DNA of 64,000 nt from assembly GCA_041660505.1 (NCBI GenBank), contig JBAZWG010000002.1:868-64867 (forward strand), given 5' to 3'. Below are positions 27,889 to 59,241 of the stretch, in pieces; position 1 is the stretch's first letter; each line of letters opens with the position of its first letter. This DNA is from Minisyncoccota bacterium (GTDB taxonomy: Bacteria; Patescibacteriota; Minisyncoccia; Phycocordibacterales; JACRKE01). A model generated the notes under the pieces. The model was not told the origin of the DNA. It did no database searches and saw nothing but the letters and a program-made list of their open reading frames with translations. The position numbers and the translations under genes are program-made.

Positions 27889-28754
27889 GTGCGTTTTATA
27901 TTATTCGAGTCCTTTCGATCAACATAAACCCATTTAAGGGTATGCAGATTTACGGGACTCTTAAGATATATCGTTTCAAACGGAGCGTCCTCGGTCTTCT
28001 TGACCTGCTCAACCCTTGCGACAAGCGTGGGCTTTTCTGTAGGCAAAGTGGCCTCATCAAGCACGTTTATTTTTATATTCTTCGGTAAACTGGCAATGAA
28101 CGTGCCATCGCCGTCGCCTTGGATATTCACAGAAACATGCTCCTCCCCCAGAAATACTGAGGTTGTCACCTTGGCCGCCGAATAGAGTATTACTCTAGAG
28201 GATGATGTGTATACATCCGAGACAGAGCCGAGCACTATGTCTCCGAATGAATACACCTTGTCGCCACGAGAAATGCCGTCAGTACTGCCGACATCAATCA
28301 GCATAGACGCATAATATGAACGCTCCGGCGAAAGCAGAACAAGCGCCCCGATTGAATTTGCAGTCGGGGCACACAGAGTCCAGGGCGTGGTTGAAGAAAA
28401 AACCGTATCCTTTCTTCTTGATAATAAATTCTTGAGCTCATTATTCTCACTTGTCAGAACCGAAAGATACGATAGTCTCTCGCGAGAAAGTTCTATATCT
28501 GTTCTTAGCGCCTCATTTTCTGTCATGAGATTTTCTTTGCTTTTTAGGCCGACAGAAAGCGAGTCGACAGAGCGGACAATAAATTGCCCCGCATAAGTGA
28601 ACGGGCTTACTAAAAAAATTACAAACTGCGAAGCATAGGTTCGAGCCGGGGAAAAAATAAGGGCGAGGGCGAACGCAACGAGCGTAAACGTCCATGACTT
28701 ATACCAATGCGGCTGATTTCTATTCTGGAGGTAGGTCGTCTTCATCTTGGACAA
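27867..28754 (-). CDS. mreC: rod shape-determining protein MreC
   Basis: N-terminal TM, coiled-coil (ENEALRTDIELSRERLSYLSVLTSENNELKNLL), C-terminal beta-rich domain; operon position after mreB. Confidence 0.8.
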   Translation of the reverse strand: MSKMKTTYLQNRNQPHWYKSWTFTLVAFALALIFSPARTYASQFVIFLVSPFTYAGQFIVRSVDSLSVGLKSKENLMTENEALRTDIELSRERLSYLSVLTSENNELKNLLSRRKDTVFSSTTPWTLCAPTANSIGALVLLSPERSYYASMLIDVGSTDGISRGDKVYSFGDIVLGSVSDVYTSSSRVILYSAAKVTTSVFLGEEHVSVNIQGDGDGTFIASLPKNIKINVLDEATLPTEKPTLVARVEQVKKTEDAPFETIYLKSPVNLHTLKWVYVDRKDSNNIKRTCIPATR

Positions 28755-29784
28755 GTAAGTCTCTATAAAATTCGATGTCGTCTAAGATTATTCCGGTACC
28801 CCTTGCTACGGCCGTAAGCGGGTCATCGGAAATATATACTGGAATCTTCAAATCCTCCTCGAATACCTTGGTCAAGCCACGCAGAAGAGAGCCGCCGCCA
28901 GTGAGTAATATGCCTCTATGCATGATGTCCGAAATAATTTCTGGCGGAGTTAATTCCAACACTTCGCGTACGGCCGTCACCAGAAGACTGATTGATTGCC
29001 CGATTGCCTCGGTAATATCCTCGTTCGTCAGCATTATCTCGCGAGGGAGGCCAGTGACGAGGTCGCGACCCCGCACTATAGTTTCTAACGATTCGGATTT
29101 TGGATGGATAGAACCTATGGCAATCTTGACCTCCTCGGCGGTCTTCTCTCCGATGAGCATTTTGAACTCATCGCGCACATAGCCGACAATATCTTGATTA
29201 AGTTTGTCGCCCGCTATACGCAAGCTCTTGGCTTTTACGATGCCGCCGAGCGATATGACCGCTATGTCTGAGGTGCCGCCACCTATATCGATTATCATAT
29301 TACCTATCGGCTCGTAGACGGGCATACGGATACCGATAGCGGCGGCAATAGGTTCTTCTACTATATGCACTTCGCGCGCGCCGGCATTCTTAACAGCATC
29401 TCGTACGGCACGGCGTTCGACATTCGTAATACCGGACGGTACCCCCACGACCACTCGCGGACGGATTATCTTACGCGGAAACATTGCCTGTGTCTTTTTT
29501 ATGAAATAATGTATCATCTCCTCTGTTGCCTCGAAGTCGGAGATGACACCGTCAACCAGGGGCCTCACCGCAACGATGTGCTGGGGCGTGCGGCCGAGCA
29601 TCGAACGCGCATCACTGCCTATTGCCACAACCTGACCGGTCTTTTGGTTCAAGGCAACTACTGACGGCTCATTGATAATGATGCCGTTCCCACGAACAAA
29701 CACGAGCGTGTTGGCGGTACCCAGATCCATACCCACGTCGCTTGAGAATTTTGTGAGCAAACTTTCGAGAACTTTATTTTTCAT
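28720..29784 (-). CDS. mreB: rod shape-determining protein MreB
   Basis: DLGTANTLVF, EPIAAAIG and IDIGGGTSDIAVIS actin-fold motifs; 354 aa. Confidence 0.9.
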   Translation of the reverse strand: MKNKVLESLLTKFSSDVGMDLGTANTLVFVRGNGIIINEPSVVALNQKTGQVVAIGSDARSMLGRTPQHIVAVRPLVDGVISDFEATEEMIHYFIKKTQAMFPRKIIRPRVVVGVPSGITNVERRAVRDAVKNAGAREVHIVEEPIAAAIGIRMPVYEPIGNMIIDIGGGTSDIAVISLGGIVKAKSLRIAGDKLNQDIVGYVRDEFKMLIGEKTAEEVKIAIGSIHPKSESLETIVRGRDLVTGLPREIMLTNEDITEAIGQSISLLVTAVREVLELTPPEIISDIMHRGILLTGGGSLLRGLTKVFEEDLKIPVYISDDPLTAVARGTGIILDDIEFYRDLLVQDEDDLPPE

Positions 29785-31036: not shown

Positions 31037-31894
31037 TTAAGACTTTTTGTCAAAAAATTTGTTATCTCTTTTATTCTTAAGGTCAAGGTAATTTGATCTT
31101 GTTGAGACCTTTTGTCCAGTCTTGGCTTCGACAGCTCGACGAGCGACACCCGCAACCGAACCACCTTCTTTTGCATCTTTTTGTAGGGCTGGCAGTTCGC
31201 GAGAATCTTTGTTGCGAGAAATTTGAGTTGTTGTTGCTTCACCAAGCATCGTTAAAATAAGCTCGAGCTCGTTCATGTGGTCGCGTGGATTGTCTGGACT
31301 GTTCAAGCTCTTAAACTCTTTAATTTCTTTTGCTGTCATTTCGAATGCGCCCTGATATATCTCGTTAGTCAATATCGCAAAGTCAATCCCCTCCCTTGCA
31401 CCACGATCTTTCCACTCATCTGTTAGCGTATTCCGGATATTAATACCACGCATTCGTTTGGCGACCCAATCTTCTGAATAGCCTTTCCTGTCGTATATCT
31501 GTTTTGCTCTAACTATTGCCCGTTCCGGGTCTTGGATTTCCTCTATGCGCTCCTGACCGACCTTTGCAAGCCAGAGCTTGAAAGGCTCGGCTTTTGGGGA
31601 CGGTATGGATTGGATTATTCTAAACATACCCTGAAGATTTGTGCTGTCTGTCTCATATAACTTACCGTCTGCTGATGGTAATTTCAGTTGTACGATTTTT
31701 TCGTACAACTCGGAATATCCTTCTGAAATAAGCTTAATTTTAAGATCGCTCCAATATCGCCTCGGGTTTTGGCTCTCTGAAAGAATGCCTACGATATCAA
31801 TTATAGAGAAATACCACTGCTCATTATGCCATGTTCTGCGAACTTCCTTCTCTTCGAAAACAGCTGATTGTTTTACTTTTATGTCTTTTTTCAT
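31037..31894 (-). CDS. DinD-like protein (N-terminal Bro-N domain; DNA-damage-inducible protein D family), paralog 1
   Basis: Bro-N-like N-terminus (FEEKEVRRTWHNEQWYFSIIDIVGIL). The rest is collinear with E. coli DinD (LTDEW..GAREGIDFAILTNEIY..., ELELILTMLGE). Paralog of 59828..60586. Confidence 0.65.
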   Translation of the reverse strand: MKKDIKVKQSAVFEEKEVRRTWHNEQWYFSIIDIVGILSESQNPRRYWSDLKIKLISEGYSELYEKIVQLKLPSADGKLYETDSTNLQGMFRIIQSIPSPKAEPFKLWLAKVGQERIEEIQDPERAIVRAKQIYDRKGYSEDWVAKRMRGINIRNTLTDEWKDRGAREGIDFAILTNEIYQGAFEMTAKEIKEFKSLNSPDNPRDHMNELELILTMLGEATTTQISRNKDSRELPALQKDAKEGGSVAGVARRAVEAKTGQKVSTRSNYLDLKNKRDNKFFDKKS

Positions 31895-34293: not shown

Positions 34294-35319
34294 TTATCGC
34301 TTGCTTATAATACTGCGTTTATATGTATCAAGATGCTCGAGGGCGACACCAGTGCCTTTAGCCACACAAAAGAGTGCTTCGTCGGCAAGCTGAGCTTTGA
34401 CCCCCGTCTTGCGATAGACCAATTCCGGCAGATTGCGAAGCTGGGAGCTCCCGCCGGTCATGATTATGCCTTTATCAATAATATCAGAGGCGAGCTCCGG
34501 CGGTGTCTCTTGCAAAACATCTTTAATCGCCTTGACCATCTGACGAAGCTCGTTGTCAATCGCCTTCACAATCTCATTCGTCGCCATCTCGGCACTGCGC
34601 GGGAGACCGGTCAAGAAATCTCGACCCTTAATAATAGTGCGCAATTCGCTCTCCATCGGTACTGCAGAACCGATCTTCACCTTAATTTCTTCTGCGGTCT
34701 TGTCGCCTATCGCCAGATTAAACGTGCGTTTGATATATTCCGTAATAGCGACATCCATTTTATTACCGGCACACTTGACGGATGTAGAGGCCACGATACT
34801 GCCAAGGGATATCACCGCTACGTCTGTCGTACCGCCGCCGATGTCGACGACCATGTACCCGCATGGCTCATGAATCGGGATGCCGGCGCCAATCGCCGCG
34901 AGTATCGGCTCCTTGACCACGTAAGCACTGCGCGCACCAGCCTTGATGGCTGCCTCGATGACAGCCCGGCGCTCGGTCGAGGTAATACCGGCAGGTACGG
35001 ATATCATAACGTCGGGCTTAAAAAAGTTCCACTTGCCAAGAGCCTTCTGGATATAATACCGTAACATCGCCTCGGTCACGCGATAGTCGGCGATGACGCC
35101 GTCCTGCATCGGTTTGTAGACAAGTATACCGTCCGGCGCCTTGCCCACCATCTCTTTGGCCGCCGCGCCGACGGCCAAGACTTTATTATCTATCTCCGAA
35201 ACAGCCACAACTGAAGGCTCGTTTAGAACAATCCCCCGCCCAGGTACGAAGACGAGCGTGTTGGCGGTACCCAGATCAATACCAAGCTTGCGAGTAAATC
35301 GAGGGAATTCAAACTTCAT
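34294..35319 (-). CDS. mreB: MreB/Mbl actin-like protein, second paralog
   Basis: Start set at MKFEFPRFTRKLGIDLGTANTLVFV (ATG 35319). TGcTATAGT sits 6 nt upstream on the minus strand. Full MreB motif set. The ORF-track N-terminal extension runs into the RAYT element and is rejected. Confidence 0.85.
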   Translation of the reverse strand: MKFEFPRFTRKLGIDLGTANTLVFVPGRGIVLNEPSVVAVSEIDNKVLAVGAAAKEMVGKAPDGILVYKPMQDGVIADYRVTEAMLRYYIQKALGKWNFFKPDVMISVPAGITSTERRAVIEAAIKAGARSAYVVKEPILAAIGAGIPIHEPCGYMVVDIGGGTTDVAVISLGSIVASTSVKCAGNKMDVAITEYIKRTFNLAIGDKTAEEIKVKIGSAVPMESELRTIIKGRDFLTGLPRSAEMATNEIVKAIDNELRQMVKAIKDVLQETPPELASDIIDKGIIMTGGSSQLRNLPELVYRKTGVKAQLADEALFCVAKGTGVALEHLDTYKRSIISKR

Positions 35320-35381
35320 TACCCTACTATAGCAAACACTTTTTACTGTCCAAAGCTTAGCTTTGATAATTTCGATATGTG

Positions 35382-35390
35382 TGGTATAAT
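35382..35390 (+). promoter_or_regulatory. extended -10 TGgTATAAT, 6 nt upstream of the RAYT ATG (leaderless)
   Basis: gtggtataat-ttaaca-ATG. Confidence 0.45.
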
Positions 35391-35396
35391 TTAACA

Positions 35397-36077
35397 ATGC
35401 GAATTATTGAATTTTGTGCGAATGAATATTACCACGTCTTTAACAGAGGCAATAATAAACAAGTAATCTTTCGCGATGATAGCGACCGTTTCCGATTCCT
35501 GTTCGCACTGCTTTTTTTTCAGGCTCCAATCAGCTATGACCAGATTGGCAGATATATAGTGTTTTTAAAAAGGCACAGGACGGACATTAGCCAGAATGAT
35601 TCATTAAAGGATTTAGCGGAGCACGTACTGGGCAAACGCTCTATAGAATTAATCAATTTTTGTCTTATGCCAAACCATTTCCACCTTGCCGTTAAGCCAA
35701 TGAAGGATAATGCAGTGTCGCTATATTTACATAAAGTATTAACTTCGTATACAAAATATTGGAATAAAAAATATAAGGCGACGGGACACCTGTTCGAAGG
35801 ATCATTCAAAGCTGTCCGTGTTGCTGATAATGACCAGTTTTTATATCTATCGACCTATATACACAGAAACCCCGCTGAATTATCGACGTGGATTGGTCGC
35901 GAGCATGAATATCCGTGGTCGAGTCTGCAAGACTACCTTGGTGTTAATCGTTGGGGAAAACTGCTTGCGACCGAAAATATTTTAGAGCAATTTGACTCGA
36001 TTGAGGAATATCGGGCTTATGTTAACGATAGCACAGCAAAAACCGGCGATGACGACATCGAGTTTGTCCAAAGCTAA
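35397..36077 (+). CDS. REP-associated tyrosine transposase (RAYT), HUH/Y1 family
   Basis: YHVFNRGNN...IF.DD.DR.RFL.LL, HUH motif LMPNHFHL, GHLFEGSFK, catalytic-Tyr region YIHRNPAELS, and the C-terminal YPWSS motif. Start at ATG 35397 (ORF-track GTG 35379 rejected). Confidence 0.7.
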   Translation: MRIIEFCANEYYHVFNRGNNKQVIFRDDSDRFRFLFALLFFQAPISYDQIGRYIVFLKRHRTDISQNDSLKDLAEHVLGKRSIELINFCLMPNHFHLAVKPMKDNAVSLYLHKVLTSYTKYWNKKYKATGHLFEGSFKAVRVADNDQFLYLSTYIHRNPAELSTWIGREHEYPWSSLQDYLGVNRWGKLLATENILEQFDSIEEYRAYVNDSTAKTGDDDIEFVQS

Positions 36078-36094
36078 GCTTTGGACATTGGACC

Positions 36095-38326
36095 CTACTT
36101 CCCGTACATATATAATGAGTAAATCTCATTGGCCGACAACTCGCGGTTATAAATACGCACGTCATCGATTCCGCCCTTCCACGGTTCAGCCGGCGCGCCA
36201 TAATCACCAATATACATATTTACTCCGCCATCGTTATATACTCCGCCAAGATTCTTGTTATCGCTACCCACAAGTCTACCATCTATATATAAATACTGTG
36301 CGGAGTTTGTTTTTACACAGACCATATGATGCCATTTACCGTCCTTATACACATTGCTTACTGCCGGGGACGCAATGGTCGCTGCAACTCTTAGACTGCA
36401 ATACATTTGAGTACCGCCACTATCCCCCATCAATACTGCACTACCAGCAGAGTATTTTCCCAGAATAAAATAAGCGGTGGCGCCAGGGACTTGCCCTCTA
36501 TTGAACCAAGCGGAATATGTCCAACTATTCGCATTGGTTGGCCCGAAGTTGTTGCCCAGATTTACAGTATTATTAGCGCCATTCTTTGGGAAATACAACC
36601 CTTGTCCAATTTTCCCTGCAATAATACTTGTCCCTGTCACTGTCCCATTTTTCCCATTTCCACTTTTGTCTAACATTACACCGGTAGTCCTGTCCACAGC
36701 ATCAAACGTCCACCAGCCGACGAGACCATTTGTGGTGCTTTGAGCCGAGACTAGCGCTGGACTGGCTGTGACCTTCGCGCCACCGAGTGTATATAATGAG
36801 TAAACTTCATTGGCCGACAAGGCGCGGTCGTAGACACGCATGTCGTCGGCTTGCCCTGAAAAAATACCGTCTGACTCGGCGTTACCAAATACTCCAAAAT
36901 AGTAAACACTGTTTGTTATATTAGGGGTTACCGTGGTCGGAGTACCGGATATCGCCTGTAGTACACCATTCACATATATCTGCGTGGTTGTATTTGCCGC
37001 GCCGGGAGATTTAACAATGGTCACTAAATACCATTTATTTGCCGTTAATGCACCTGCGGCTGTTGCGACAGAATTGCCGGAAGCGTATTCGACCGAAACA
37101 GCCCCTGCTCCGCGCAAATTAAAGAAGGTGCCTATAGCCGCACCAGCACCACCGTTACGATCACCCGTAAAAAGACCTGCGCCGGATGTTGTTGTATCTC
37201 TCAATTTCACCCACTGCGATAAGGTTATAGACGCATTACCAGAGATGCCAGAATTATTAGCACCAAGTAGATAACATTTCTGCCCATTTGTGGTCGCTGT
37301 TGGCGTAAGCGATATTCCTCGACTTATCTTCGCGGTTACAAATTGCGGCGTGCAATTCGTCCCGCTCTGTGTTGTAAACATATGACCATTACCAGTCTTA
37401 TCTATTGTATAAGTACTCCCTGAATCTGGGGTATCGAAAGTCCACCAGCCGACAAGGCCATTCGTGGTACTCTGCGCGGAAACTTTCGTCGGGCTTGCCG
37501 TAATCTTACTTGTACCGAGCTGGTACAGAGCTTTAATCTCGCTCGCAGACAATGCACGACTATAAATGCGCACGTCGTCGATAGAGCCGTTAAAGTTATA
37601 TCCTCGTGCGTTAACTCCGCCTGGTCCCCATGGGCCGTCTGCAGCAATATCCAATTCTCCATCCGGCGCATTTTGCGAACCGGTTATCGTTGTCGGGGTC
37701 TGGGCAATTCCGTCGATGTATAAGGTTATTGTTGTACCGTTTATTGTTTCGACCGCATGATGCCATTGATTATCTCCATAGGCACCGGCGCTCGTAGAAA
37801 AAAAGTCTGTACCGTTATAGTACTCCGCAGATACTGTATTATTCGTATTCATCAATAGACCCCAAAGATAGCGGTTGGGAGCATTATTAAGCGTATCTTT
37901 TCGGAGAATCGACATTTCACCTGCCGCATTCCCGCTCGTTTTAAACCAAGCCGAAATCGTAAGCGTAGAACCCAGCCGCAGGCTTGCGCTATCGGGCACG
38001 GCGACGTATTGCGATGCACTAATTGCGCTCCATGAAGCATTAGACGACAGAGCTTGGCCGATCTTGCCCTGCACTTTACTCATGCTTGTTAATGTCCCAT
38101 GATTTGCATATAAGCTTTTATCCCTCACTTGCGAACCTGTTACGTATCCTGAATCAAACGTCCACCAGCCAACAAGGCCATTCGTCGTGCCCATCGCGCC
38201 CAGAGCCTGCGCGCTCGAAACTGCAGACGCCTCTGCCTTGCCGGCCAAAAATAGCGCAGGCAACAAAAGCAAGAGCGCGAGGAACCTAGTTAAAAGTTTA
38301 ATGCTTACGAGTGTCACAATTTTCAA
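36095..38326 (-). CDS. secreted protein with four LamG-like (concanavalin A-like lectin/glucanase, Laminin_G_3-type) domains
   Basis: Signal peptide. Four repeats of TNGLVGWWTFD ... DDVRIY(S/D/N)RALSA(S/N)EI..LY. 743 aa. Starts 18 bp downstream of the giant gene stop, so likely the same operon. Confidence 0.8.
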   Translation of the reverse strand: MKIVTLVSIKLLTRFLALLLLLPALFLAGKAEASAVSSAQALGAMGTTNGLVGWWTFDSGYVTGSQVRDKSLYANHGTLTSMSKVQGKIGQALSSNASWSAISASQYVAVPDSASLRLGSTLTISAWFKTSGNAAGEMSILRKDTLNNAPNRYLWGLLMNTNNTVSAEYYNGTDFFSTSAGAYGDNQWHHAVETINGTTITLYIDGIAQTPTTITGSQNAPDGELDIAADGPWGPGGVNARGYNFNGSIDDVRIYSRALSASEIKALYQLGTSKITASPTKVSAQSTTNGLVGWWTFDTPDSGSTYTIDKTGNGHMFTTQSGTNCTPQFVTAKISRGISLTPTATTNGQKCYLLGANNSGISGNASITLSQWVKLRDTTTSGAGLFTGDRNGGAGAAIGTFFNLRGAGAVSVEYASGNSVATAAGALTANKWYLVTIVKSPGAANTTTQIYVNGVLQAISGTPTTVTPNITNSVYYFGVFGNAESDGIFSGQADDMRVYDRALSANEVYSLYTLGGAKVTASPALVSAQSTTNGLVGWWTFDAVDRTTGVMLDKSGNGKNGTVTGTSIIAGKIGQGLYFPKNGANNTVNLGNNFGPTNANSWTYSAWFNRGQVPGATAYFILGKYSAGSAVLMGDSGGTQMYCSLRVAATIASPAVSNVYKDGKWHHMVCVKTNSAQYLYIDGRLVGSDNKNLGGVYNDGGVNMYIGDYGAPAEPWKGGIDDVRIYNRELSANEIYSLYMYGK

Positions 38327-38344
38327 TTTCTAACTTACAATTAT

Positions 38345-41300
38345 TTACGGCGTCGTACTCGTCGCATTTGGGTCTATTACGTTAACTATTCTTATCTGTT
38401 CGATGGCATTATTACCTGAATTATCTACTGCGTTATATTTAACCTCATGTGTACCGGCTAATGTTGTGTCTATCTGATCGCCTGTCGTGACTATGCCGAG
38501 ATTATGATCTACGTTGTCTGTAACTGTTGCGCCCATGTCGCTGTAACTCGAGCCCATGTTTATTGTAGATGGGTTGAGGCCGAGCATTGTGATGACCGGA
38601 GCCTCTGTGTCTGCTGGCGGGGTCGAAGTACCAGCAGGCGCCCCGGCTGGGGCAGTTCCTGCCACGCACTCCCCTGCTACGCTGGCGACGAGGCCACTTG
38701 ACACCTTCAAACAATACGGATTGCCTGTCGTGTCGTCATATAATGTGACACCTATCGGGTTTACTGACGAGCCAACCTTCATACTCTTTAACACGTTTAA
38801 GTCTTGTACCACCAATCTGCCGTTCTCGTCCAAGCTCCAGTTGCCCGAGGCAGAAGCCAGACTCTTTATATTGACTATTGCTTGCCCTTGCAGGTCGAGT
38901 ACGCGCGCTGTTGCGAGCTTCATATAACCCGTACTTTGATCTACTACCCAGTCTGAACTCACGGCGCCGTCTGCAATACCCGAAGAAATATTCTGATAAC
39001 CAAGATTGACGAAGACAGTAATACTGCCTGTCTGTGAATAAGAGCCGTCGGGTAGAGTGCCGCTCCAAGGCTCAAGGGCGATACCAACAGTCTGGCCGGA
39101 GGTCGTCGCCTTCATACCGATACCTGCCGCCGATGAAAGCGTGATGTAGTCACCAACCGCAATATCCCCTCCTTCAAGGTTAACTTTAGTCGGCACGCGA
39201 CCAGAGAGAGCCACGGGACGCGAAGTACTCGCCGTAAACTCCGAACTTGCACCACCGAGCAGAACACCGGGGTCAGTAGATATGATTCCTATTACCGGTA
39301 TGATAGTAGAACTTGCCTTTCTCACAACAAGAGTCGAGGTAGAAGTATCCAACGATACTAAGTCACCCGCCGAGATAGTCTCGTCCGTTATTTTGTAACT
39401 CTCTGCCAGGTCCACGGTTTGCGTCGAAGCTCCTCGAGAATAAATCTGTCCTGCCGGTACAGAACTACATGCTACCGTAGCGGAACTCGTTGACACGCAA
39501 AGACCGGAACCAGTCCCTGTTCCGTAAACTTCGAGCTTCGCCCCTGGCGTCGTCGTCCCGATACCGACGTTGCCCCCCTGTGCCTGAAAAGCGATATTCT
39601 GATTATATCCCGTGTTCTGCTGTATTCCTTGAAATTCAAAGACATTTGAGGCATTGGACATTGTAACCTGTAGTTGCTTTTGTGTTGTCCCCTGCTGATT
39701 TCCAAACTCCATAAGTTTAACGCGGTCTGTTGCAGTCTCGCTTACTGGAGAGATAACTCCATTCACGCTTAGCTTGTAGTTAGGTGTGGTTGTCCCGATG
39801 CCTACGTTGCCCGCGTTTGTTATTGACAACTTCTCCGAGCCTTGTACCGCTAACCCCATGGTTGCTCCTGTACCTCTTGCGTCTAAGAACGCTTTACCAG
39901 CATTACTCGTGTATATAGACAGACCAGTAGCGGCAGCAGCGGAGAAGGTGTTGTTGCCAATTACCAATCCATAAGGGCTATCATCATCTCCTGTTATTTT
40001 TAGCAGTTGTGTTGCGGCTGTCCCACCATCAAGAATTTCAAGTTTTGCCGAAGGACTCGTCGTCCCGATGCCGACGTTGCCATTCTGTTGTATTCTCATC
40101 TTCTCAGCATTAGCTGGTGAGAATGAGATATAGTTTCCAGTACCAGCAGAGTAGTTGGTTTGGAAATCAAGTGAATTATCACCAGCGTCATTGAAGGTTA
40201 TTTTGGCATACTGTCCCGCTACTCCTGCGCCCAAGTTATCCAAAACGATTTGCGGATTGCCGCGAGTCCCCTCGTGAATTGAAAGTTTAGCCCACGGAGT
40301 TGTGGTTGCAATTCCGACATTACCATTCGTATCTATCATCACTTGGTCAGTATTTGAATAGGAGTCTGACCCTTTTCCAAAAAACATTGTCCCATTACTA
40401 CTCTGTATGTAGCGATGATGCAAACCAGATACGGCATCGGTATCAGAAAGATAAAACATTGGGGCGATATTGGCGATATTTAACAAATATGCTGGCGTCG
40501 TCGTCCCGATACCGACGTTGCCGTTTCGGAGCACTGTGAACGATGTCGTTGTTGCCGTTAATGTTGAGCTGGCCACCGTGAATATCGGCTGGGTGCCGTC
40601 AACATTGCTGTCGCTTGTGTTGGCGGAGACAGAGAGTTTGGCCCATGGGGTTGTGGTGCCGATACCGACTAGCCCGCCGGAGGTGATACGCATGGCTTCG
40701 GTCATTGCGGTGCTATTGTTGGTACTGAAAGCTAAGTAGCCAAGTTGATTGTTTGTTGTAGAGTTTTCTTTAAACCCAACGATGCTGGCGAAATTTCTGA
40801 TCGATGAGGGGATTAATGGTACATCGTCTTTATAACCACCGAAGGCGATAGAGCCACCGGTATCTACAGCTTGGGAATTATTCGATCGTATCAATAATTG
40901 TCCCGTAGCGGTACGCGTCGGGACGGTGCTCGAGCCATAGATATCAAGCAGAGCTAGCGGCGTCGTCGTGCCGATGCCGACATAGCCACTGCGGAGGATT
41001 GTAAATAATGAATTGGTGGCGCTGGCGGTAGAGCTCGCAACGACAAAGAGCGGGGTGGCCATGTTGGCAGAGGAGTCGGTCGTATTGCCTTGTATCGAGA
41101 GTTTAGCAAATGGTGAGGTAGTGCCGATGCCGACAAAACCATTAGTGGTGAATTGGCCTGTGCTTGTGGTGGTGGCGTTGCCGTTCACGGTCAAAACAGA
41201 TGTTGATGTTGTGCCTGTTGTAGTGAGGTTGGCGTTGGTGCCAGAGGAACCAATGAGAACGCCACCGGCAAAGTTGGCGGCGACGCCGTTCGGGTTGGTA

Positions 41301-44300
41301 ATTGGATAGCTGACAATAACAATACCGGAACCGCCACCGCCACCCGCGCCTCCTTCTGTAGCACCGCCACCTCCACCGCCCGAGTTAGTGGTTCCGGCAG
41401 TACCAGCACCAGAAGTACCTCCTGCGCCACCGCCACCAAGCCCTCCAGAACCTCCGCTTTGAAGATCGCTGGAGCCACCACCACCGCCACCATAGTAGAC
41501 GGTGGTTACACCATCGCTAATAGCGGTAGTTGTGCCTATTCCGCCGACGCCGGCGGCTGCATCTGACCCATTACTACCAGTAGCACCCGCTCCGCCACCA
41601 CCACCGCCACCATTATTCTGTGCCGCTCCGCCACCATTATAGCCTTGCCCCGAAGTACCGTTACCGCCTGATTGACTGCCGGCACTGGCAGCACCGCCAC
41701 CAGAACCACCATCGCTACCAGCCCAAGTGAACGCTTGAGAACCTCCCTTACCTCCTCCTGTGGCCACTACAGTACCAAACTGCGAATCGCCTCCGTTAGT
41801 ATTAGTGCTACCGGTAGCACCCGCTCCGCCAGCACCGACTACTACTGTTATGCTTTGAGAAGGCGTCACCGCGTATGAATATCCGTTACTAGGTCCGCCG
41901 CCAACAACTCCTCCTCCACCTCCTCCACCGCCATCAACCCACGAAGTAACGCCGTTCTTGCCTCCACCGCCACCACCTGCCACCACGAGCACCTTAACGC
42001 TGGTTACACCACTACTTGGAACGGTAAAAGTGACAGACCCGGTATTGGTAAATGTATGAACCCTGTAGGTCTGTCCACCTGACGTATAGGTAGTGACGGT
42101 TCCTTGATTGTCTGTAGCCGATGGCGTTGAGCCTACTGCATTAACATCGAGTGAATATGCCGGCGTCACAACGCCGATGCCGACGAGGCCTGCGGACGTG
42201 ATAGTTGTTGTTGCAGTTCCTCCAAACCACGACTGATCGTTGACGGAAAGTTGAGTTGTCGAAGCATTAGTAAACGTGGCTTGGCCGGTGACTGCGAGCG
42301 TGCCGGATAATGTCGTTGCGCCGGTGACGGAGAATGTGCCACCAACGGATGTGTCGCCGGAGACAACGAGAGCTGATGTGCTTGCTGTGCCCGTCACCGC
42401 CAGATTCGTCGTCGTGGCGTTGGTGCCTGTGGCATTCACGAAGGTGAAGTTTTGGAGGGTGGTGCTACCTGTGAGCAAGATGTTGGTGGCGGTGAGGAGA
42501 CCGTTATTAAGAAGCGTAAGCCTCTCGTTGTTCGCGAAGTCGGCGAAGGCGAAGAGTCTGCCGGTGTCATTGGTGCCGAAGCCGTTGACGGCGAACTTGG
42601 CGGATGGCGAGGTTGTGCCCACGCCGACACGGTCGGAATATGAACTGCCGGTGCCGTCGGCAAGAGCGTAGACCGTGAGGGTGGAGGTAGCACCAATGCC
42701 AGCCGAGAAGCCGAGCTCGGTACCGGAGGCGAGCGTTGTCGAGGCGAGAGGCATATTGATCCAATCAATGAGACCGGCGTCGGCCTCGAAGGATTGCGAG
42801 CCGGTGATGAGCTGGGCAATGGTGGTTGAGCCGGTGTTGTCTATAGAGAAGAGCGTGGTGGAGGCACTGTCTGTGACTTCGAAAGCTCGGCCTGATGACG
42901 TGGCTGTGCCCCAGATGGTAACCTTGGCATATGGCGAAGTGGTGCCGATGCCGACGTTGCCTGTCGATGAAATGTAGATGGAAGAGGTGGCCTGTGCTAC
43001 TCCCGCATCGTTACCGACGAGCAAGAAGCCTTTCGTAAGATTGAGAGTGGTGAGAAGTGAGGATGTGGCAGTTGAATACAATCCGCCGGTAGAAGTAAGT
43101 GATGCAAAACCGGATGTGTAAGAAGAGAATGTCGCGTTGCCGGAGACTATGAGCGCGGATGTGCTTGCGATGCCCGTCACCGCCAGATTTGTCGTTGTCG
43201 CATTCGTGCCCGTGGCGTTTGCGAAAGTAAAGTTCTGGAGAGTAGTTGACCCCAGTGTAAAGATATCGCCGAGATAATTCACAGAGAATTTGGTGGAGGA
43301 TGCGACTTTCATATCTAGCAACATACCGGAGAAACCGGCTAGGGCATCGGTGCCGATAACTGTGCCCGTGGTGGAGAGTTTTTCGACAGAAAGTAGGGCG
43401 TATGGTGATGAGGTACCAATGCCCAACAAGCCTTCGGCGGTCACTGCGCCGAGAACCGTACCAGAACCATTTTGCCATTCTTGCAGATCTGCTGTTTGGC
43501 TTGTGATGCCTTGTACGATCAAACCTTTTTCACCGACCTCAGCAGTGCTGACGTGAAGTTTAGCGAGCGGTGTGGCATGCGAGGTGGCGGTATTGCCGAG
43601 AACAAGGGAGCCTATGAAGATCCAATCTGATTGGCTGGCGCTTATATTGAGTTTGTAATATCTATAGTTCTGTGCTGTACCTAGGGCATATGTTCTGATT
43701 TCACCAGAGCTCCAAGCGGGAACATTTGTTTGTGTATTCAAAACAGTCCATGCCGAATTGTCGTTTGAACCCTCGAATGTCCAAGTTTTTGGCCCATAGG
43801 TGTAATAAGTGGTATACGAGTCTGCCTGGATTTTATATTGATTTACAGTTGTATAGGTTCCCAAATCAATTTTCAACCAACCTGAAGTACCATTAACACA
43901 CCACGCCGTCGAAGAATCTGAATCAAAAGATTGCCACGCAGAACAGTTGACCTCTGTAGACGCACTTGCCACATACGGCGAAGGGGCGCTGTCGCTCGTC
44001 AAGAATGTCGGGATCTGAACATTTGCCGGCGTAGAACCAATAGCTAAGCGAGAGTTTATCGAGTCAAAATACATGATGCTGTTATTCTGACTGACTGCTC
44101 CATTAGCACCAATATACGGGACAGAGCCAGAAGTAAGCGCGGTAAGCGAGAGCGTACCGCCAACCGTTGAATTGTCGCTGACGATGAGCGCAGAAGTTGA
44201 TGCTGTACCCGTGACTGCAAGGTTGGTGGTTGTCGCATTGGTACCCGTAGCATTGGCGAAAGTGAAGTTCTGCAATGTAGTTGATCCCAACGTAAAGATG

Positions 44301-47300
44301 TCGCCAAGATAATTTACGGAGAACTTGGTGGATGAGGCGACTTTGAGATCAAGTAACGTACCGGTAAATGTTGATAATGAATCAGCGCCAATGACGGTGC
44401 CTGAAGAAGATAGATGTTCGATAGAGAGACGAGCATATGGGGTTGAAGTGCCCATTCCGATCAGGCCGTTATAGAATGATGTGAAGATAGGGGCGGAACT
44501 TGTGGCGTTTTGTAATGAAAATATGGAGATACTTTGTGAACGAGAGGTCGTAGCGTTGAGCGAGAAGAAGCCGTTCACATTCAGACTGTTCCAAAGTCTG
44601 GTATTCCCCGCCACTTCGACATTGCCGGATGAGAAAATGTCGCCGGAGTAAATTGATGATGCGCCGGAGTCGGCCTCGGCAAGAGTACTGCTTGAGTAAG
44701 CGAAGCCGATCATGTCAAGAGTACCAGCCAGCATTGTGCGCGCCAATGATGAATATTCAACAGATGAAAGTGCGGTCGTACCGCCATCATTTGTTCCGGC
44801 GATGGCATAAACATAACCATTTACAACAAGAGATGTGTGATATTCCCTAGCACCGCTAAATGGCGTAGCGGTGAGCGTCGTCCACGCGCCGAGAGTGCCA
44901 TTTGCATATATCTTGGCATATTCGATGGAGGAAAGGTTGCCGCCGCCGATACCGCCCATCGCGTACAAATATCCGTTTGCCACCACGGCGGATAACGCTC
45001 CTCTGGCTGTATTAAGAGGAGTTGCGGTGAGCGTCGTCCACGCGGCCAGCGTGCCGTCGCTGTTTATCTTCGCTGACTCTACCGACGATATGGACGTTCC
45101 ACTTGTTATTCCACCAATTGTATAAATATATCCTCCAACAACAACTGACGCGTGAATATTTCTGGCTGCGTTAAGCGGTGTCGCCGTTAGGGTCGTCCAT
45201 GTACCAAGCGTACCGTCACTATTTATCTTCGCATATTCGACGGTAGCGGTATCGCTTATGCCGGTACGACCGCCCATAACATATACATAACCGTTAGAAA
45301 CTACGGAGGCGTGCGCGTATCTGGTGATATTTAATGATGCCGTCGTTTTCCACGCACCGAGCGTGCCGTCGCTGTTTATTTTTGCGTATTCGACAGTATT
45401 AACCTGTACTCCACCTGTACCATTACCACCGATGGCGTAGACATATCCGTTGGCGGCGATAGAACTGTGCTGATATCTTGTGATGGTAAGCGATGACGTT
45501 GTTGTCCACGCACCAAGTGTGCCATTACTGTTTATCTTGGCATATTCGACAGATGAAAGCCTGGTACCGTTGTATCCACCGATGGCGTAGACATATCCGT
45601 TGGCGGCGACTGATGTCTGTTGGTAACGAGTCGTGCCTAGAGATGATGACGTTGTCCACGCGCCAAGTGTGCCATCATTGCCGGAGTTGAGCGCAATTGT
45701 TTTCTGCGCAACCGATACCGGATACACAGGGGATGAAGTCCCGATGCCGACGTTGCCGCTATTCTGCTGGACAACGAATTGCGATGTGCCAACTGTTAAG
45801 CCGCCCGTTGAGAATGTGGAAGTGGCGGTGGTGGAAGTAATTGCGAGCACGCTCGTTGTACCGATTGATGCGGTAAAATTCTGGAGCGTGGTACTGCCCA
45901 GCGTAAAGATATCACCGAGATAATTCACCGAGAACTTGGTGGAGGATGCGACTTTGAGATCGAGCAATAGGCCGGAGAAGCCGGTGAGCGCATCTCCCGC
46001 GATAAGCGTGCCGGCAGAAATCCCGTCGACGGAGAGCTTGGCGTAGGGCGTTGAGGTACCGATACCGACGTTACCGGCAGTACCTTCTATCACCATGCTG
46101 GTTTGCGGTGTTGCAAACATGTCTCTCGGAGTAGTTAGGAACCGAATTGCTGTTGGTACGGTGTCACCATTGTCTTCGGCTTGTTTCGCGGCGACAATAT
46201 CCAAGACTCGCGCATAACGACCCGCAGACGGATAATCTATTACATAGTTATATGAAAATGTGGCTCTGTCGTCCGCCAAATAACTCGGCAAACTCGTTCC
46301 TCCATATCCTCTGAATATTTTTATATCTTTACCATAAACGTCTAAACCTGCAGTGGGACTTTCGGTCCCTATTCCTACGTTGCCGCCGCGTGTTACAACA
46401 AAGTTAGTTGTTGTAGCAATATCGGTTGAGGATGATATCAAGAAGAGCGGTGCGATTAGGTCTAGATCGGAAGTGTTGCCACTCACAGAAAGTTTCGCGT
46501 AAGGCGAAGTGGTACCGATGCCGACGAGGCCAGTATCGGTGATGGTCATCCGCTCGGCACTGGCGGTTACGAATCGAAGGAAGTCGTCATCACCGGCGGT
46601 GATGTAGGTGGTCTGGGCGGCGTTGATGACACCGCCTAGGCCTTGCCAGACACTGTTGTCGCCGAAGCCTTCGAACTGGTGCGTCGTTGTGTTGTAACGG
46701 ATCTGGCCGGCAAGCGCCATGCCCGGTCTCTGGGCTGTTGTGCCAATTGGGAGATGGACTGCGTCGGTGGCGTAGATGTCGAGACTCGTGGCCGGTGTTG
46801 AAGTGCCAATGCCGATGCGACCGCTTGATGACTGGACGATGAATTGGCCGGAACCGATATTAAGGCCGCCTGTCGCGAACGTCGATGTAGCTGTTGTCGA
46901 TGTCGCAGTGAATGACGAGGCGACCACTTCGCCCATAACAGAGAGCGGTGCATATGGCGAGCTGGTGCCGATGCCAACATTGGAATTGCGGTAGATGTTG
47001 GAGCCGTTCACCGTCCAATTGGAGAATACTGCCGCAACACCATTCTGGAGTAATGAACCAGTGATGTTGATATCGCCCGCCACATCGAGCGCATGTTCGG
47101 GAGAAGTAGTGCCAATGCCGACAAGGCCGGTGAAGATGGCGCCAGTGCCGGTGGTGGTGCCCGTAAGTGTCCCGCCACCAAGCGGCAGATACCCGGAGAT
47201 TGTGCCCCCGCCGGTGAAGGTGCCGGAGATGGTGGCATTGGTGATGGTAACGCCGTTCAATGAATCGATGCGATTAGAGAGACTGATGGCGCGATAGTTG

Positions 47301-47833
47301 CCGGCATCGACAGCGGCGCCATGCGAAGCGTTGGCGTAGATGAGGGCTGTGAGTTTGTTGTCGAGCTGGTTCAGCTTGGTAGCCAAGTCACTTGATGTAA
47401 CACCGGAACTTGTTTGTTGGTAAATGATTGTTGGTTTGGTTGTTGTAACGGTTCTCGCGGGCGCACTGCCGATGACAGAAATCTTGCCCGCCAAACTATT
47501 GACTTGATCACGTAATGCTTGTATATCGCTGTTTACAGTTGTAGTTGACAGAGTATCAGATATCGTGGCAATGTCGGTGACTTTTTGACTGATAACAGGG
47601 GTGGTAACTGTGACTGTCGGAGAGGGCTTTTGGACCTGCGGAGAGAAGAAGGAGATGAGCGACGTTTGAACGCTATTGAATATGTCCCCTATCGTACTGC
47701 TGATGCTTGCCATATATTGGCTAGGTAGAGCCGTATATTCATTGACGAGGGAGGCGTGAGCTAGCGAAAAATTTGCAATAAAAAAGACGGTTAAAACCGC
47801 AAAGTAAACTACAAATTTTCGCACCGAATGCAT
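38345..47833 (-). CDS. giant secreted multidomain surface protein (3162 aa). It has tail-fibre-like GIGT repeats, a Kelch-type beta-propeller, a discoidin (F5/8 type C) domain, a Gly-rich domain, a tail-fibre-like C-terminal module and an Ig-like (DUF5011-type) domain.
   Basis: Signal peptide [27 protein letters not shown]. About 20 copies of G(N/L)VGIGT(T/S)(S/T)PxAKLxV. About 6 YVYAIGG Kelch blades (aa ~715-1060, nt ~44650-45690). Discoidin-like [31 protein letters not shown]...YRYYKL (aa ~1290-1415). Gly-rich [14 protein letters not shown]... (aa ~1955-2175, nt ~41320-41960). [19 protein letters not shown] module (aa ~2808-2990). C-terminal Ig-like [31 protein letters not shown] (nt ~38380-38610). 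No C-terminal TM or sortase signal. Confidence 0.85.
   Translation of the reverse strand: [3162 protein letters not shown]
42300..46000. repeat. three to four near-identical ~250-300 bp direct repeats inside the giant gene
   Basis: Copies around 45860-46000, 44160-44350, 43140-43330, and a partial copy at 42300-42480. They encode (G/M)LLD(L/M)[46 protein letters not shown]. They are potential recombination or size-variation substrates. Confidence 0.7.
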
Positions 47834-51887: not shown

Positions 51888-53087
51888 CTACTTGGTGATA
51901 TTTGTGAATGGGCCTGTGATAGTGTGCTCGTAGCCGTTGTAATACGGGTAGGAAGCAGTGGAAGTTTGGCCCTCTGCGGCCGCATCATCGGTGTCGGCAT
52001 TCTGGGGCGCGATAGTAGCGCTCGAGTTAAGGCCCGTCGCAAGAAGGTCGGTATTCTCATTGATATTAAAGTCTATTGTGCGGTTGACACCGAGGCCGAC
52101 ATCGCCTTTGACGTACGCATTAAACGAGTCGCCGCGCTCGATGCGGATACCATCCTCACCAAAATCGGAATCATAGAAGCGTGAGTCGCTATCGCGAGGG
52201 ACGGCATCGAATTCATACTTCTGCCCGCGATATTCGACGACTGTCTTAACATTGTGTATATCATCTCCACTGGCCGAACCGTTCTGACGCCAAGCAAGAG
52301 AGTTAAGAGTAATAGGCTCCGCACCGCTCAGATCGAAACGCACGCCAGAGAAAGCAACGCCTGCTGAATTCAAGATAATACTCTTGTTCAGAGCCGGGTC
52401 ATACGAGCCGATAGTACCCGTCAAGCTCCCAATGACATACGTCTCATTGACCGTCTGGAATCTGCCGGCGATTGGCAGGCTGCCCTGAACCGGTGCGTCT
52501 GCATCGATTGCCGTAAGTGAGAGCCTCGCCAATTCCCCATCGTGCCCCGTGAGATCGCTCGCCATGGCACCATAGAGCGTGATTTCTTGCGACTCGTCTT
52601 GCTTAATAAGCATTGGCTTCTTTAATCTCAAAATATAAATATGATCTGTATGAGGTGCGAGAACATAGGCCGCATCTTCATATATCCCTAAATACGAGAA
52701 TACCGATTCGCTCGCCATGCCCGTCTGCATGATGGTAAGAGCCTTTACTGTTACATCGGCGCCCTTGGCCGTAAACTTAACTTTGGTAAATTCTGCCCCT
52801 TGATCTGCGGCGACAAGGAGCCGTTCCGCCGGATTTTCTAATTGTTCGACGAGGAGCGCTGGAGCCTCTGTGGCCGGCACGCTGACGACGCTTGCCGTAA
52901 GCGCTGAACTGCTTTGCGCGATCATCTGGGCCAGCTCCTTACGAAGCTCTACTATTTTCTTAAGCAACGCGACAATAAGCTCTTGCTTGCTGTTCGATGA
53001 TTGCACTGTGGCATTCGCCGTCTGCACGGACACGAACGACACCAGAAGCAATAAGCCAAGAGCGACACTTTTAGAAACTGATTTCAT
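51888..53087 (-). CDS. secreted hypothetical protein
   Basis: Signal peptide MKSVSKSVALGLLLLVSFVSVQTANA; 399 aa; no recognisable motifs. Confidence 0.5.
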   Translation of the reverse strand: MKSVSKSVALGLLLLVSFVSVQTANATVQSSNSKQELIVALLKKIVELRKELAQMIAQSSSALTASVVSVPATEAPALLVEQLENPAERLLVAADQGAEFTKVKFTAKGADVTVKALTIMQTGMASESVFSYLGIYEDAAYVLAPHTDHIYILRLKKPMLIKQDESQEITLYGAMASDLTGHDGELARLSLTAIDADAPVQGSLPIAGRFQTVNETYVIGSLTGTIGSYDPALNKSIILNSAGVAFSGVRFDLSGAEPITLNSLAWRQNGSASGDDIHNVKTVVEYRGQKYEFDAVPRDSDSRFYDSDFGEDGIRIERGDSFNAYVKGDVGLGVNRTIDFNINENTDLLATGLNSSATIAPQNADTDDAAAEGQTSTASYPYYNGYEHTITGPFTNITK

Positions 53088-57857: not shown

Positions 57858-57864
57858 ATATTTT

Positions 57865-59241
57865 TTAAAGAACATATTTTAAGATGAAATAGACAATCGC
57901 CAATGCGAGAGGGACGCCGATGAGTGCCGCGACGGCATCTCCTTGCGCAGATGCCGGCGCACCGGTAGTAAGATTAACATTTATATATCGATCTTCTCTG
58001 CGCGGTCTCATTTTAACAGTGATCTTCTTGCCCGTTTCGGCCGACTTAATCACAAGCTCAACCTCTGAATTCTTTTTGTTAGCTAAGACATCCTGGAAAT
58101 ATGGGTCTTTTGCACGATAACGCGCTGGATCGCCCGTATAAGAGCGATTGTAGACTGGCCAATTGCCGACATTTTTACCATTGATCTTCAGAATAAAATC
58201 GCCCGGGTTTATACCATTTTCTGCCGCAACGGAATGCGGCTCGACATGATTGATTAAACGCCAGTCTTTTGGTCCAAATCCGAGCCCCAGGCCACTATAG
58301 CGCGAACGACAGACACGACGCTTCGGAGACTTGTCTGACTTCTCAGGGAACTCTCCTATTAACTCTGCGAGCATAACGGGCGCAATTCCGCGAATATCCG
58401 GGTCAAGCCCTTCATTATCCGCTTCGCCCATCCAAATCATCGGCGGGATTTCAAGCTTTTTACCGCTTGCCAACTTGGCGTGATTCAAAAAATTAAGCCT
58501 AATATTACTGTAAAAGGTGGTGGTGGTGTAACCCGGCGTAGTGCGCGAGCTTGTTATAGGCACGGCGGAAGTCATCCCTCCCCAGCTATCGCCGAGCGTG
58601 ACAATATTCCAGTCGTACTTTACTTCTGTGCTGGTGATTGTCGTCGGTGGGGTATATTGCTCTTTTTTGCCACTAAAGAAATCCATACTGATGACGGTCT
58701 GCGGATTCTTTTTCGCACGTGTCATCCCTTGCGACAACAATATTTTTTCCAAATCTCGAAAGAGCTCTTTTTCGAGCAACGGGTTTGTCTTGTTAGTATA
58801 ATCGAAGTCGAAGGTCTTGTAGTCGGCCAAGGGCTCATCGGTATCGCGATAAGTCCGAACATTGATTTCTTCCATCGGGAAGGCAACGGGGAAAAGGTCT
58901 TCGTTGTTGTTATTGTAACCCGCCGCGTGTTCCCCTATCGTGTCCACAATATTGGCTTCAGAAATCCATGAGGTTGCAGCCACTGCCTTCTTTCGTTTCG
59001 CCTTTCCAACCAGTAACCCGAACAAAACACCCAGTACCAGATAAAACACGGGTGTCATCCATAATGCAATGGTGAACAAGCTTGATGTATCAGGGCTAAT
59101 TATCGCCACTATAAATACAACCGGGTAAAGTAATACTGCTAATAAATCAACAGAATACCCGGAGAAAAAAAGAGTTGGGTAAATCAATCCTATTATCAAT
59201 CCAATCATCCCCCACTTCTTCCAACTCTTCCAATTTTTCAT
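57865..59241 (-). CDS. membrane protein with a PDZ domain (hypothetical)
   Basis: N-terminal TM helices, PDZ-like GLGLGFGPKDWRLINHVEPHSVAAENGINPGDFILKINGKNV, and a C-terminal TM. Confidence 0.55.
   Translation of the reverse strand: MKNWKSWKKWGMIGLIIGLIYPTLFFSGYSVDLLAVLLYPVVFIVAIISPDTSSLFTIALWMTPVFYLVLGVLFGLLVGKAKRKKAVAATSWISEANIVDTIGEHAAGYNNNNEDLFPVAFPMEEINVRTYRDTDEPLADYKTFDFDYTNKTNPLLEKELFRDLEKILLSQGMTRAKKNPQTVISMDFFSGKKEQYTPPTTITSTEVKYDWNIVTLGDSWGGMTSAVPITSSRTTPGYTTTTFYSNIRLNFLNHAKLASGKKLEIPPMIWMGEADNEGLDPDIRGIAPVMLAELIGEFPEKSDKSPKRRVCRSRYSGLGLGFGPKDWRLINHVEPHSVAAENGINPGDFILKINGKNVGNWPVYNRSYTGDPARYRAKDPYFQDVLANKKNSEVELVIKSAETGKKITVKMRPRREDRYINVNLTTGAPASAQGDAVAALIGVPLALAIVYFILKYVL

Follow-up and report, generated by a model that had tools for sequence, protein, structure and literature searches.

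In a 64-kb stretch of DNA from a Minisyncoccota bacterium (contig JBAZWG010000002.1; the whole 64,000 nucleotides are called the window from here on), we analysed a pair of adjoining genes encoding a giant protein of 3162 residues and a secreted protein made of laminin G (LamG) domains. Our results make it probable that the pair specifies a surface fibre of Paceibacteria, a group within the candidate phyla radiation (CPR). Specifically, the fibre would be an N-terminally anchored homotrimeric multi-lectin for attachment to a host or a surface, assisted by the LamG protein in the role of accessory adhesin or assembly factor. According to this proposal, the giant protein would be exported by Sec, held at the cell through an N-terminal hydrophobic helix and a conserved stem, and folded as a homotrimeric fibre of roughly 100 nm. 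Its shaft would be built of about 20 beta-helical units, each initiated by a GIGT motif, as in the mosaic adhesive trimer (MAT) fibres of Bdellovibrio and in phage tail fibres. A C-terminal autochaperone of the phi29 gp12 type would nucleate the folding of the trimer and probably cleave itself before D2808. Three kinds of ligand-binding domain placed along the shaft, namely a Kelch propeller, a discoidin domain and a tumour necrosis factor (TNF)-like sandwich with a polyglycine lattice of the sort found at phage fibre tips, would make the fibre a multivalent binder of glycans or surfaces. The LamG protein, presumably co-transcribed, would act with the fibre as a separately encoded adhesin or assembly factor, comparable to the product of the phage gene that follows the tail-fibre gene.

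A preliminary description of this DNA, made from the sequence alone, had placed the two open reading frames (ORFs) in an operon of a small, reduced genome. Both ORFs are real, they lie on the minus strand and are separated by 18 bp as described, and the genome is a CPR genome. The coordinates of all features are collected in Table 1. An NCBI entry from a 72.7-kb contig, identical to the giant protein, carries the name 'MAG: glycine-rich domain-containing protein [Candidatus Paceibacterota bacterium]'; this taxon corresponds to the phylum Minisyncoccota (Patescibacteria/CPR). The entry begins at M41, thereby dropping the first 40 residues including the signal sequence. Because these residues hold the sole hydrophobic segment of the protein, the longer ORF, with its ATG at 47833, looks like a better start call than M41. 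A TATAAT box ends 6 nt ahead of this upstream ATG (window 47713-47833), and the mRNA of the giant gene may carry a very short leader or none at all. Scans for promoters and terminators performed no better than on shuffled sequence. NCBIfam contained no family for the giant protein.

Table 1. Position of the gene pair, of the domains of the giant protein and of the adjoining Y1 element in the window (aa, residues of the giant protein; bit scores are followed by the cut-off)
Feature	Window coordinates	Strand	Remarks
Candidate giant fibre gene	38345..47833	(-)	3162 aa, ATG start, single uninterrupted ORF
Gene of secreted protein with three Laminin_G_3 domains	36095..38326	(-)	743 aa
Predicted signal peptide or signal-anchor, aa 1-28	47750..47833	(-)	hydrophobic aa 6-30, AHA/S
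Conserved N-terminal stem, aa 37-230, ends ...ISLSNRIDSLNGVTITNATISG	47144..47725	(-)	BLASTP to homologues
First GIGT fibre-unit array, aa 231-714	45692..47143	(-)	motif positions 236-693
Six-blade Kelch beta-propeller, aa 715-1030	44744..45691	(-)	Kelch_1 77.7 bits vs 20.1, 4.2e-22
Discoidin / F5_F8 type C domain, aa 1271-1402	43628..44023	(-)	PF00754, PF22633 over cut-offs
Middle GIGT units and diverged internal repeats, aa 1403-1911	42101..43627	(-)	motifs aa 1468, 1625, ~1737, 1882
TNF-like beta-sandwich and glycine-rich lattice domain, aa 1912-2177	41303..42100	(-)	
C-terminal GIGT array, aa 2178-2807	39413..41302	(-)	nine motifs
Predicted phi29-gp12-type (Peptidase_G2-like) intramolecular chaperone, tandem beta-tulip, aa 2808-2950	38984..39412	(-)	
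Post-chaperone segment with two Cys, aa 2951-3075 (...GVTLYDDTTGNPYCLKV...GEC)	38609..38983	(-)	conserved in P0007
Bacterial surface Ig-like (DUF5011-type) domain, aa 3081-3152	38378..38593	(-)	PF16403 43.5 bits vs 27
RAYT-like Y1 (HUH) transposase gene	35397..36077	(+)	Y1_Tnp (PF01797) 41 bits vs 23; convergent with the operon
Palindrome upstream of Y1 gene	35349..35367	(.)	CCAAAGCTWAGCTTTGG matches 2x in 64 kb vs 0 expected
Perfect 10-bp-stem hairpin between converging LamG and Y1 genes	36065..36087	(.)	

The shaft provides the closest link to fibres of known structure. We counted 20 G-[IVM]-[GA]-[TV]-x-x-P motifs in the giant protein, matching the number previously proposed. When residues 2180-2790 were compared with the PDB using phmmer, three Bdellovibrio bacteriovorus proteins were recovered, 8OND (Bd2133) with an E-value of 3.6e-8 over three stretches, 8OML with 1.4e-4 and 8OJN with 3.2e-3, and all alignments were centred on ...GNVGIGTxxPxAKLxV. 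The first array is built of units homologous to those that matched the Bdellovibrio MAT fibre structures. The tail-fibre families PHROG 9942 and 18345 matched the GIGT units, and a match to phrog_2295 spanned residues 1447-2225. By analogy with the MAT structures, each GIGT unit most likely starts one beta-helical subdomain of a trimeric fibre, and scaling from the same structures we infer that the approximately 2000 shaft residues would give a length on the order of 100 nm. The homotrimeric state is suggested by the trimeric relatives (MAT fibres, domain D4 of gp12 and Pam3 gp24); our own structure predictions were AlphaFold2 (AF2) models of the monomer. Threonine, serine and glycine together make up 40% of the residues of the giant protein.

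The giant ORF had been described as containing near-identical internal repeats of about 300 bp that could serve recombinational length or antigenic variation. Instead, the internal DNA repeats of the giant gene measured 108-185 nt and were 76-86% identical (79-83% in the middle GIGT region), with a longest exact repeat of 31 nt; Tandem Repeats Finder returned nothing, and no tandem array is present in the gene. Because the repeats are not near-identical, the basis for recombinational variation is gone, and repeat-mediated antigenic variation was rejected on repeat identity.

Every domain named beforehand was recovered by the domain searches, and all five Pfam domain types (Kelch, discoidin, Gly_rich_2, Ig-like and Laminin_G_3) exceeded their cut-offs. 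In the Kelch region, six repeats of GTLGAWTT...NGYVYAIGG could be read, and six-blade Kelch proteins of the PDB matched residues 744-1027 (E 1e-22). The discoidin assignment was marginal with F5_F8_type_C (PF00754, residues 1298-1401, 28.5 bits against a cut-off of 28.2) and better with F5_F8_type_C_2 (PF22633, residues 1303-1394, 33.7 bits against 27.8); the region was also matched by phrog_17517, annotated as 'tail protein', at 2.8e-24. What had been called a poly-Gly domain corresponds to Gly_rich_2 (PF21722, residues 1929-2176, 66.3 bits against 24.3) and combines the TNF-like and glycine-lattice folds of the receptor-binding domain of the Pam3 gp24 type. In Pam3 gp24, the TNF-like domain and the glycine-rich one make up the fibre's receptor-recognising end and resemble the S16 gp38 adhesin, and a chaperone gene adjoins the fibre gene (PMC9608196). 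The glycine-rich domain is widespread, with more than 2000 matches, often in proteins of about 450 residues, some of them with a prepilin N-terminus or a LamG_3 domain, and LamG_3 was fused to Gly_rich_2 in several proteins of about 500 residues. On this evidence, the domain is part of the general adhesive-module repertoire of these bacteria.

The C-terminal module had been read as tail-fibre-like, and together with the GIGT units and the glycine-rich domain it bears out the proposal that phage receptor-binding modules were borrowed. The S74 chaperone-protease (PF13884) gave no match in the giant protein, and phmmer with the module alone against the PDB returned only noise; its identification took a family profile and a fold search. 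We gathered and aligned 44 homologues of residues 2770-3085 (alignment A1). The resulting profile found 3gqh by sequence (E 0.0017) and placed D2808-L-A-E2811 on residues 1-4 (DFAE) of the 3gqh chain, which is the released gp12 fragment and 163 residues long. D, A and E of the D-x-A-E motif showed no variation among the 37 homologues spanning the site. In the predicted structure of residues 2770-3162, the core (2809-2949) had a predicted local distance difference test (pLDDT) score above 90 and showed the tandem beta-tulip fold of gp12 D4. The profile match to 3gqh, the invariant D-x-A-E and the predicted fold argue that residues 2808-2950 constitute a gp12-type intramolecular chaperone, probably with autocleavage between V2807 and D2808. 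As gp12 is 854 residues long, the 3gqh chain begins at D692, the residue after the gp12 autocleavage site. That site was reportedly found in phi29 gp12 by Xiang et al. in 2009 (Mol Cell 34:375, PDB 3GQH). In phi29, assembly of the tailspike trimer depends on the tandem beta-tulip region, which acts as an autochaperone (bioRxiv 10.1101/216911).

The module is common: an exhaustive phmmer search recovered 3162 cluster representatives at E≤1e-10, and 7567 when the threshold was relaxed to E≤1e-3. Most of the hits listed carry the module near the C-terminal end of the protein. Peptidase_G2 (PF11962) matched 4 of 45 homologous modules (best E 7.9e-5), and a weak match of the module to Phage_cement_2 (E 0.033) was also seen. 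From its sequence, the module would effectively be an unrecognised branch of Peptidase_G2. The segment behind it, modelled with moderate confidence, contains a two-Cys element (...G[IV]TL[YF]D..TG.PYC...GEC) shared by the window protein and the homologue P0007, and a similar two-Cys element ends an S74-type fibre protein of locus L006. The Ig-like domain, which had been correctly recognised, was located at the extreme C-terminus in all 38 homologues carrying one; 22 of these had a gp12-type motif and 6 an S74 motif, and the Ig-like domain always came after the chaperone motif.

At the opposite end, the giant protein reads MHSVRKFVVYFAVLTVFFIANFSLAHA/S. We took this as the N-terminal signal peptide already proposed, a trait also of the MAT family; residues 6-30 form the sole transmembrane (TM)-like segment of the protein and are followed by AHA/S. 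The stem (residues 37-230) matched the N-proximal parts of at least 14 homologues by BLASTP (E down to 1e-15) and no Pfam family. About a quarter of the 120 best homologues start instead with an HTH_17-like (helix-turn-helix, HTH) domain, and in these the hydrophobic helix often lies 100-230 residues after the HTH domain. HTH_17 (excisionase/MerR-like) starts followed by a TM helix were seen in P0003, P0005, P0009, P0015, P0016, P0018-P0020 and others, and small HTH_17/MerR genes are also present just upstream in L010, L011 and L012. When two HTH-bearing homologues (P0080 and P0015) were aligned with the window protein, their internal TM helix fell on its N-terminal helix. We therefore propose N-terminal anchoring: the alignments suggest that the family is anchored by an N-terminal TM helix with the fibre outside, and that the window protein is a version without the cytoplasmic domain. 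The previous statement that the protein has no membrane anchor is therefore doubtful, without being refuted.

The second protein carries a signal peptide, as read in its sequence. Laminin_G_3 matched it in three stretches (226.5 bits against 27.6, 1.9e-67), corresponding to domains at about residues 47-270, 288-515 and 531-743, and three copies each were counted of the start motif TTNGLVGWWTFD, of the end motif DDxRxY and of the DNA repeat families D7 and D9, so that the protein has three LamG domains and not four, as had been counted. To place the pair among its relatives, we compared the gene neighbourhoods of eight homologous giant genes (L005-L012). A gene for a secreted multi-LamG protein follows the giant gene in four of the seven other informative loci. 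In L007 (giant P0028), proteins of 1523 and at least 675 residues are encoded immediately downstream; in L008 (P0016), a small gene is followed by proteins of 679 and 689 residues; in L009 (P0020), a 708-residue protein is encoded immediately downstream; and in L011 (P0019), a small gene precedes a 504-residue protein. In L012 (P0018) the LamG protein is encoded 5.7 kb downstream. The contig of L005 (P0021) ends and is uninformative for LamG; P0002, like P0021, is at a contig end, where the region further downstream is out of view. The LamG proteins of L008 and L009 aligned end to end with that of the window (27-30% identity, E 1e-39 to 1e-56) and carry signal peptides; in L008b and L009a, the boundary motifs that mark the three-domain layout recur as well. 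In addition, LamG_3 was fused to fibre modules in P0062 and P0089. A search of genome contigs with the LamG protein returned only distant LamG proteins of Bacteroidota and Verrucomicrobia and gave no synteny information. The pairing of giant and LamG genes, which the preliminary description had offered for checking, is conserved. In phage loci, the fibre gene is followed by that of a tip adhesin or assembly chaperone, and by this analogy only we infer that the LamG protein acts together with the fibre, as an accessory adhesin or an assembly factor. As a separate observation, a 23S_rRNA_IVP / bAvd-like four-helix-bundle gene (5723-6142) lies upstream of the L007 giant gene, at a distance of about 900 bp. 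Avd proteins accompany diversity-generating retroelements, and no reverse transcriptase was seen in the L007 locus or in the window.

A full-length search among scored candidates identified at least 938 proteins at E≤1e-10, with lengths of 1900-5500 residues and mostly from Patescibacteria. They contain an S74 or gp12-type module, Ig-like, Kelch, LVIVD and FG-GAP domains and other inserts. By sequence, then, the window protein is not unique but falls into a large mosaic family, as yet uncharacterised, and its locus is not exceptional, as more than 900 similar giant proteins exist. One fibre unit of the window protein (residues 2584-2690, 107 residues; window 39764-40084) and a unit of P0007 (L006 17634-17936), a protein of another metagenome-assembled genome, shared 94% identity at the protein level and 83% at the DNA level. 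As this 94%-identical unit sits in proteins that are only about 36% identical in their best full-length alignment, the comparison points to the exchange of single modules between giant genes.

The nearest characterised counterparts are the MAT fibres Bd2133, Bd1334, Bd2439, Bd2734 and Bd3182 described by Caulton et al. 2024 (PMC10769870). These are signal-peptide proteins on the surface of the predator, trimeric over their whole length (Bd3182 about 55 nm), with a beta-rich, conserved domain about 130 residues long directly after the signal peptide, followed by beta-helix subdomains and swappable tips that end in an S74 chaperone-protease (SDxxxK) or other tip domains; Bd2439 binds prey glycans (PMC10769870). 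Window protein and MAT fibres are alike in carrying a signal peptide, in a shaft of units initiated by GxVGIGTxxPxxKLxV and homologous to 8OND, 8OML and 8OJN, in being mosaics with swappable binding modules, and in falling as families into two classes, with S74 or without; Bdellovibrio is, moreover, a bacterium living on other cells. They differ in that the window protein is three times longer (3162 residues against about 900-1150) and is encoded by a CPR bacterium, of another phylum and envelope type. To our knowledge, CPR bacteria lack an outer membrane. In the window protein, the binding domains are spread along the shaft and not confined to the tip. Its N-terminal stem is different, and relatives precede the stem with a cytoplasmic HTH domain and a TM helix. 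The window protein would belong to the 'non-S74' class, yet with a chaperone of the gp12/G2 type, none of which has been reported for Bdellovibrio. An Ig-like domain behind the chaperone and a dedicated LamG partner gene are likewise found only on the window side.

Other known systems are more distant. Compared with phi29 gp12, the module of the window protein remains below the Pfam threshold and is followed by about 210 residues including the Ig-like domain; gp12 is virion-borne whereas the window protein is cellular, and its cleavage is a prediction. Unlike the glycine-rich domains of phage (Pam3 gp24, S16 gp38) and of ALK/LTK, that of the window protein is internal, with about 1000 residues after it, and does not form the distal tip; the downstream gene encodes three LamG domains and not a Tfa-type chaperone. 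Trimeric autotransporters and giant repetitive adhesins (AtaA, RTX-type) resemble the fibre in function, as long repetitive multivalent surface fibres encoded by few very large genes. However, no homology to them was found, neither a beta-barrel translocator nor a type I secretion signal is present, there is no outer membrane for anchoring, and the anchoring of the window protein appears to be N-terminal. What would set the protein apart from MAT and phage fibres is its size, its phylum and envelope type, the N-terminal anchoring, the distribution of binding domains over the shaft, the gp12-type chaperone, the Ig-like domain behind it and the LamG partner. Searches of the available literature found no paper describing these CPR fibres or tying them to MAT fibres.

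Several observations weigh against the fibre proposal. Peptidase_G2 scored only 13.2 bits against a threshold of 25 on the giant protein (E 0.061). The Ig-like domain would leave with the chaperone if the latter were cut off, and its constant position behind the chaperone would be odd if the chaperone were discarded; either the fragment of chaperone and Ig-like domain has a role of its own after cleavage, or cleavage does not happen. Cleavage at AHA/S could take away the only hydrophobic segment, leaving no anchor. In L006 (P0007) and L010 (P0009), no LamG gene is located downstream.

Four other explanations were weighed against the multi-lectin fibre. The best of them, which we nevertheless find unlikely, is a general lectin 'fishing line' for substrate capture or for anchoring to particles, biofilm matrix or minerals, with no host recognition. 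The identical set of carbohydrate-binding domains would fit such a function, the organism has no known host, and Gly_rich_2 and LamG_3 are also borne by many small pilin-like proteins of diverse environmental bacteria. However, the nearest characterised relatives, the Bdellovibrio MAT fibres and phage fibres, serve cell-to-cell recognition, and the cultivated Patescibacteria are described as episymbionts (PMC12206443). The adhesive reading of the preliminary description was strengthened and sharpened by the homologies, which for attachment to a host remain suggestive.

Less likely still, a structural component of the envelope (S-layer-associated, a sheath or a cell-wall spacer) with no specific recognition role would account for the very large size, the Thr/Ser/Gly content, the Ig-like domain and the adjoining cell-shape genes mreB, mreC and PBP2. 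The Kelch, discoidin and glycine-rich domains, the LamG partner and the homology to adhesive fibres with variable tips speak for ligand binding instead, and the family is mosaic and highly variable across genomes, unlike conserved envelope scaffolds.

We consider it very improbable that the giant gene is a tail-fibre gene of a phage, prophage or tailocin lodged in the chromosome, encoding a viral receptor-binding protein and not a cellular organelle. Tail-fibre and tail-protein families of PHROG do match, and phage proteins are the best structural matches of the chaperone and the glycine-rich domain. Against this, no capsid, portal, terminase, tail-tube or baseplate gene was found in the whole window, the remainder of which is core chromosome: dcw/mur genes, two penicillin-binding proteins (PBPs), mraZ/mraW, two mreB, mreC, frr, an M50 protease, priA, def, fmt, several aminoacyl-tRNA synthetases, dnaB and recR. 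Furthermore, the giant protein has a Sec-type N-terminus, absent from virion proteins, the homologous loci are chromosomal too, and residues 1447-2225 gave no match by tblastn against 50,697 GenBank phage records. Lastly, it is scarcely credible that the giant ORF arose as an artefact of assembly through repeats that were collapsed or chimeric. The existence of internal repeats and the record of the exact protein from one contig only could be cited for it, but copies so short and diverged, without long exact repeats, are resolvable by short-read assemblers, the 9.5-kb frame is uninterrupted and the domain order agrees with independent homologues of other assemblies (e.g. the P0007 C-terminus). 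Look-ups by exact sequence, with the giant protein and with the NCBI entry, matched no contig, and a single 3-kb Logan contig has the frr region neighbouring the giant gene in common. Altogether, the preliminary description was largely right in its domains and ORFs and wrong in its LamG count and internal repeats.

The gene converging on the operon had been described as a RAYT (REP-associated tyrosine transposase) element. It is a real Y1/HUH gene flanked by palindromes, with the motifs LMPNHFHL (HFH) and YIHRNP, and scored 37.8 against a cut-off of 80 with REP_Tyr_transpos (NF047646). The two palindrome copies flanking it are the only ones in the window, and the element looks more like a single IS200-like unit. 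L005, L006 and L010 likewise have a diverged Y1 homologue at the giant gene's 3' end, flanked by perfect hairpins specific to each genome, so that four of nine loci, the window included, have a Y1 element at the 3' end of the giant gene or operon (window 35349-36087; L005 20202-20609; L006 19757-20477; L010 22093-23011), with 27-35% identity among the three full-length copies. The L010 hairpin occurs in six copies, and three of these lie within the end of the giant ORF. In the reciprocal test, of 80 metagenome loci carrying Y1 homologues only two (L043 and L054) had a fibre or LamG gene beside Y1, and the RAYT-like gene was discounted as a functional part on account of this low reverse adjacency. 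Y1 elements are abundant and somewhat enriched at the ends of fibre genes, and are probably not part of the machine.

Other features of the window deserve a record. Two proteins with a Bro-N domain, usually phage- or virus-associated, are encoded at 31037-31894(-) and 59828-60586(-), where they sit among core genes, and a third lies near the L012 fibre gene (24288-25118). Two full-length MreB paralogues are located 4.5 kb apart (28720-29784(-) and 34294-35397(-)), along with MreC and two PBP2-type transpeptidases, and this MreB duplication occurs in a genome presumed to be reduced. A PG_binding_1 protein with a weak match to Effector-associated domain 9 is encoded at 56415-57875(-), and three ORFs of 400-570 residues (4440-6152(+), 51888-53087(-) and 62426-63772(+)) had no Pfam family at E≤1e-3 or stricter.

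Beyond this locus, a broader idea can be put forward tentatively, as a possibility that we judge rather unlikely: Paceibacteria and related CPR bacteria might set their host range with domesticated phage receptor-binding fibres, in a two-gene system of giant trimer and LamG protein whose modules would be swapped between genomes like phage cassettes. It would fit the 107-residue unit shared at 94% identity by otherwise divergent proteins, the hairpin-flanked HUH elements at the 3' end of four of nine fibre loci, and a post-cleavage role of the fragment of chaperone and Ig-like domain, as the Ig-like domain always follows the chaperone. How the ultrasmall CPR bacteria find and hold their hosts is largely unexplained beyond the type IV pili of Saccharibacteria. 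The locus ties a very large unannotated CPR family to the prey-recognition fibres of Bdellovibrio and to phage tail fibres, both experimentally understood, and this tie predicts that the fibre is trimeric and cleaves itself before D2808, that its four kinds of lectin-like module bind glycans, and that it has the LamG protein as a physical or functional partner. It also corrects what appears to be a misplaced public start codon and puts a name, the gp12-type chaperone, to a domain that Pfam misses in thousands of proteins. The value of these findings would therefore lie at the level of the family more than in this gene alone, as an entry to a large uncharacterised CPR family of hundreds of members.

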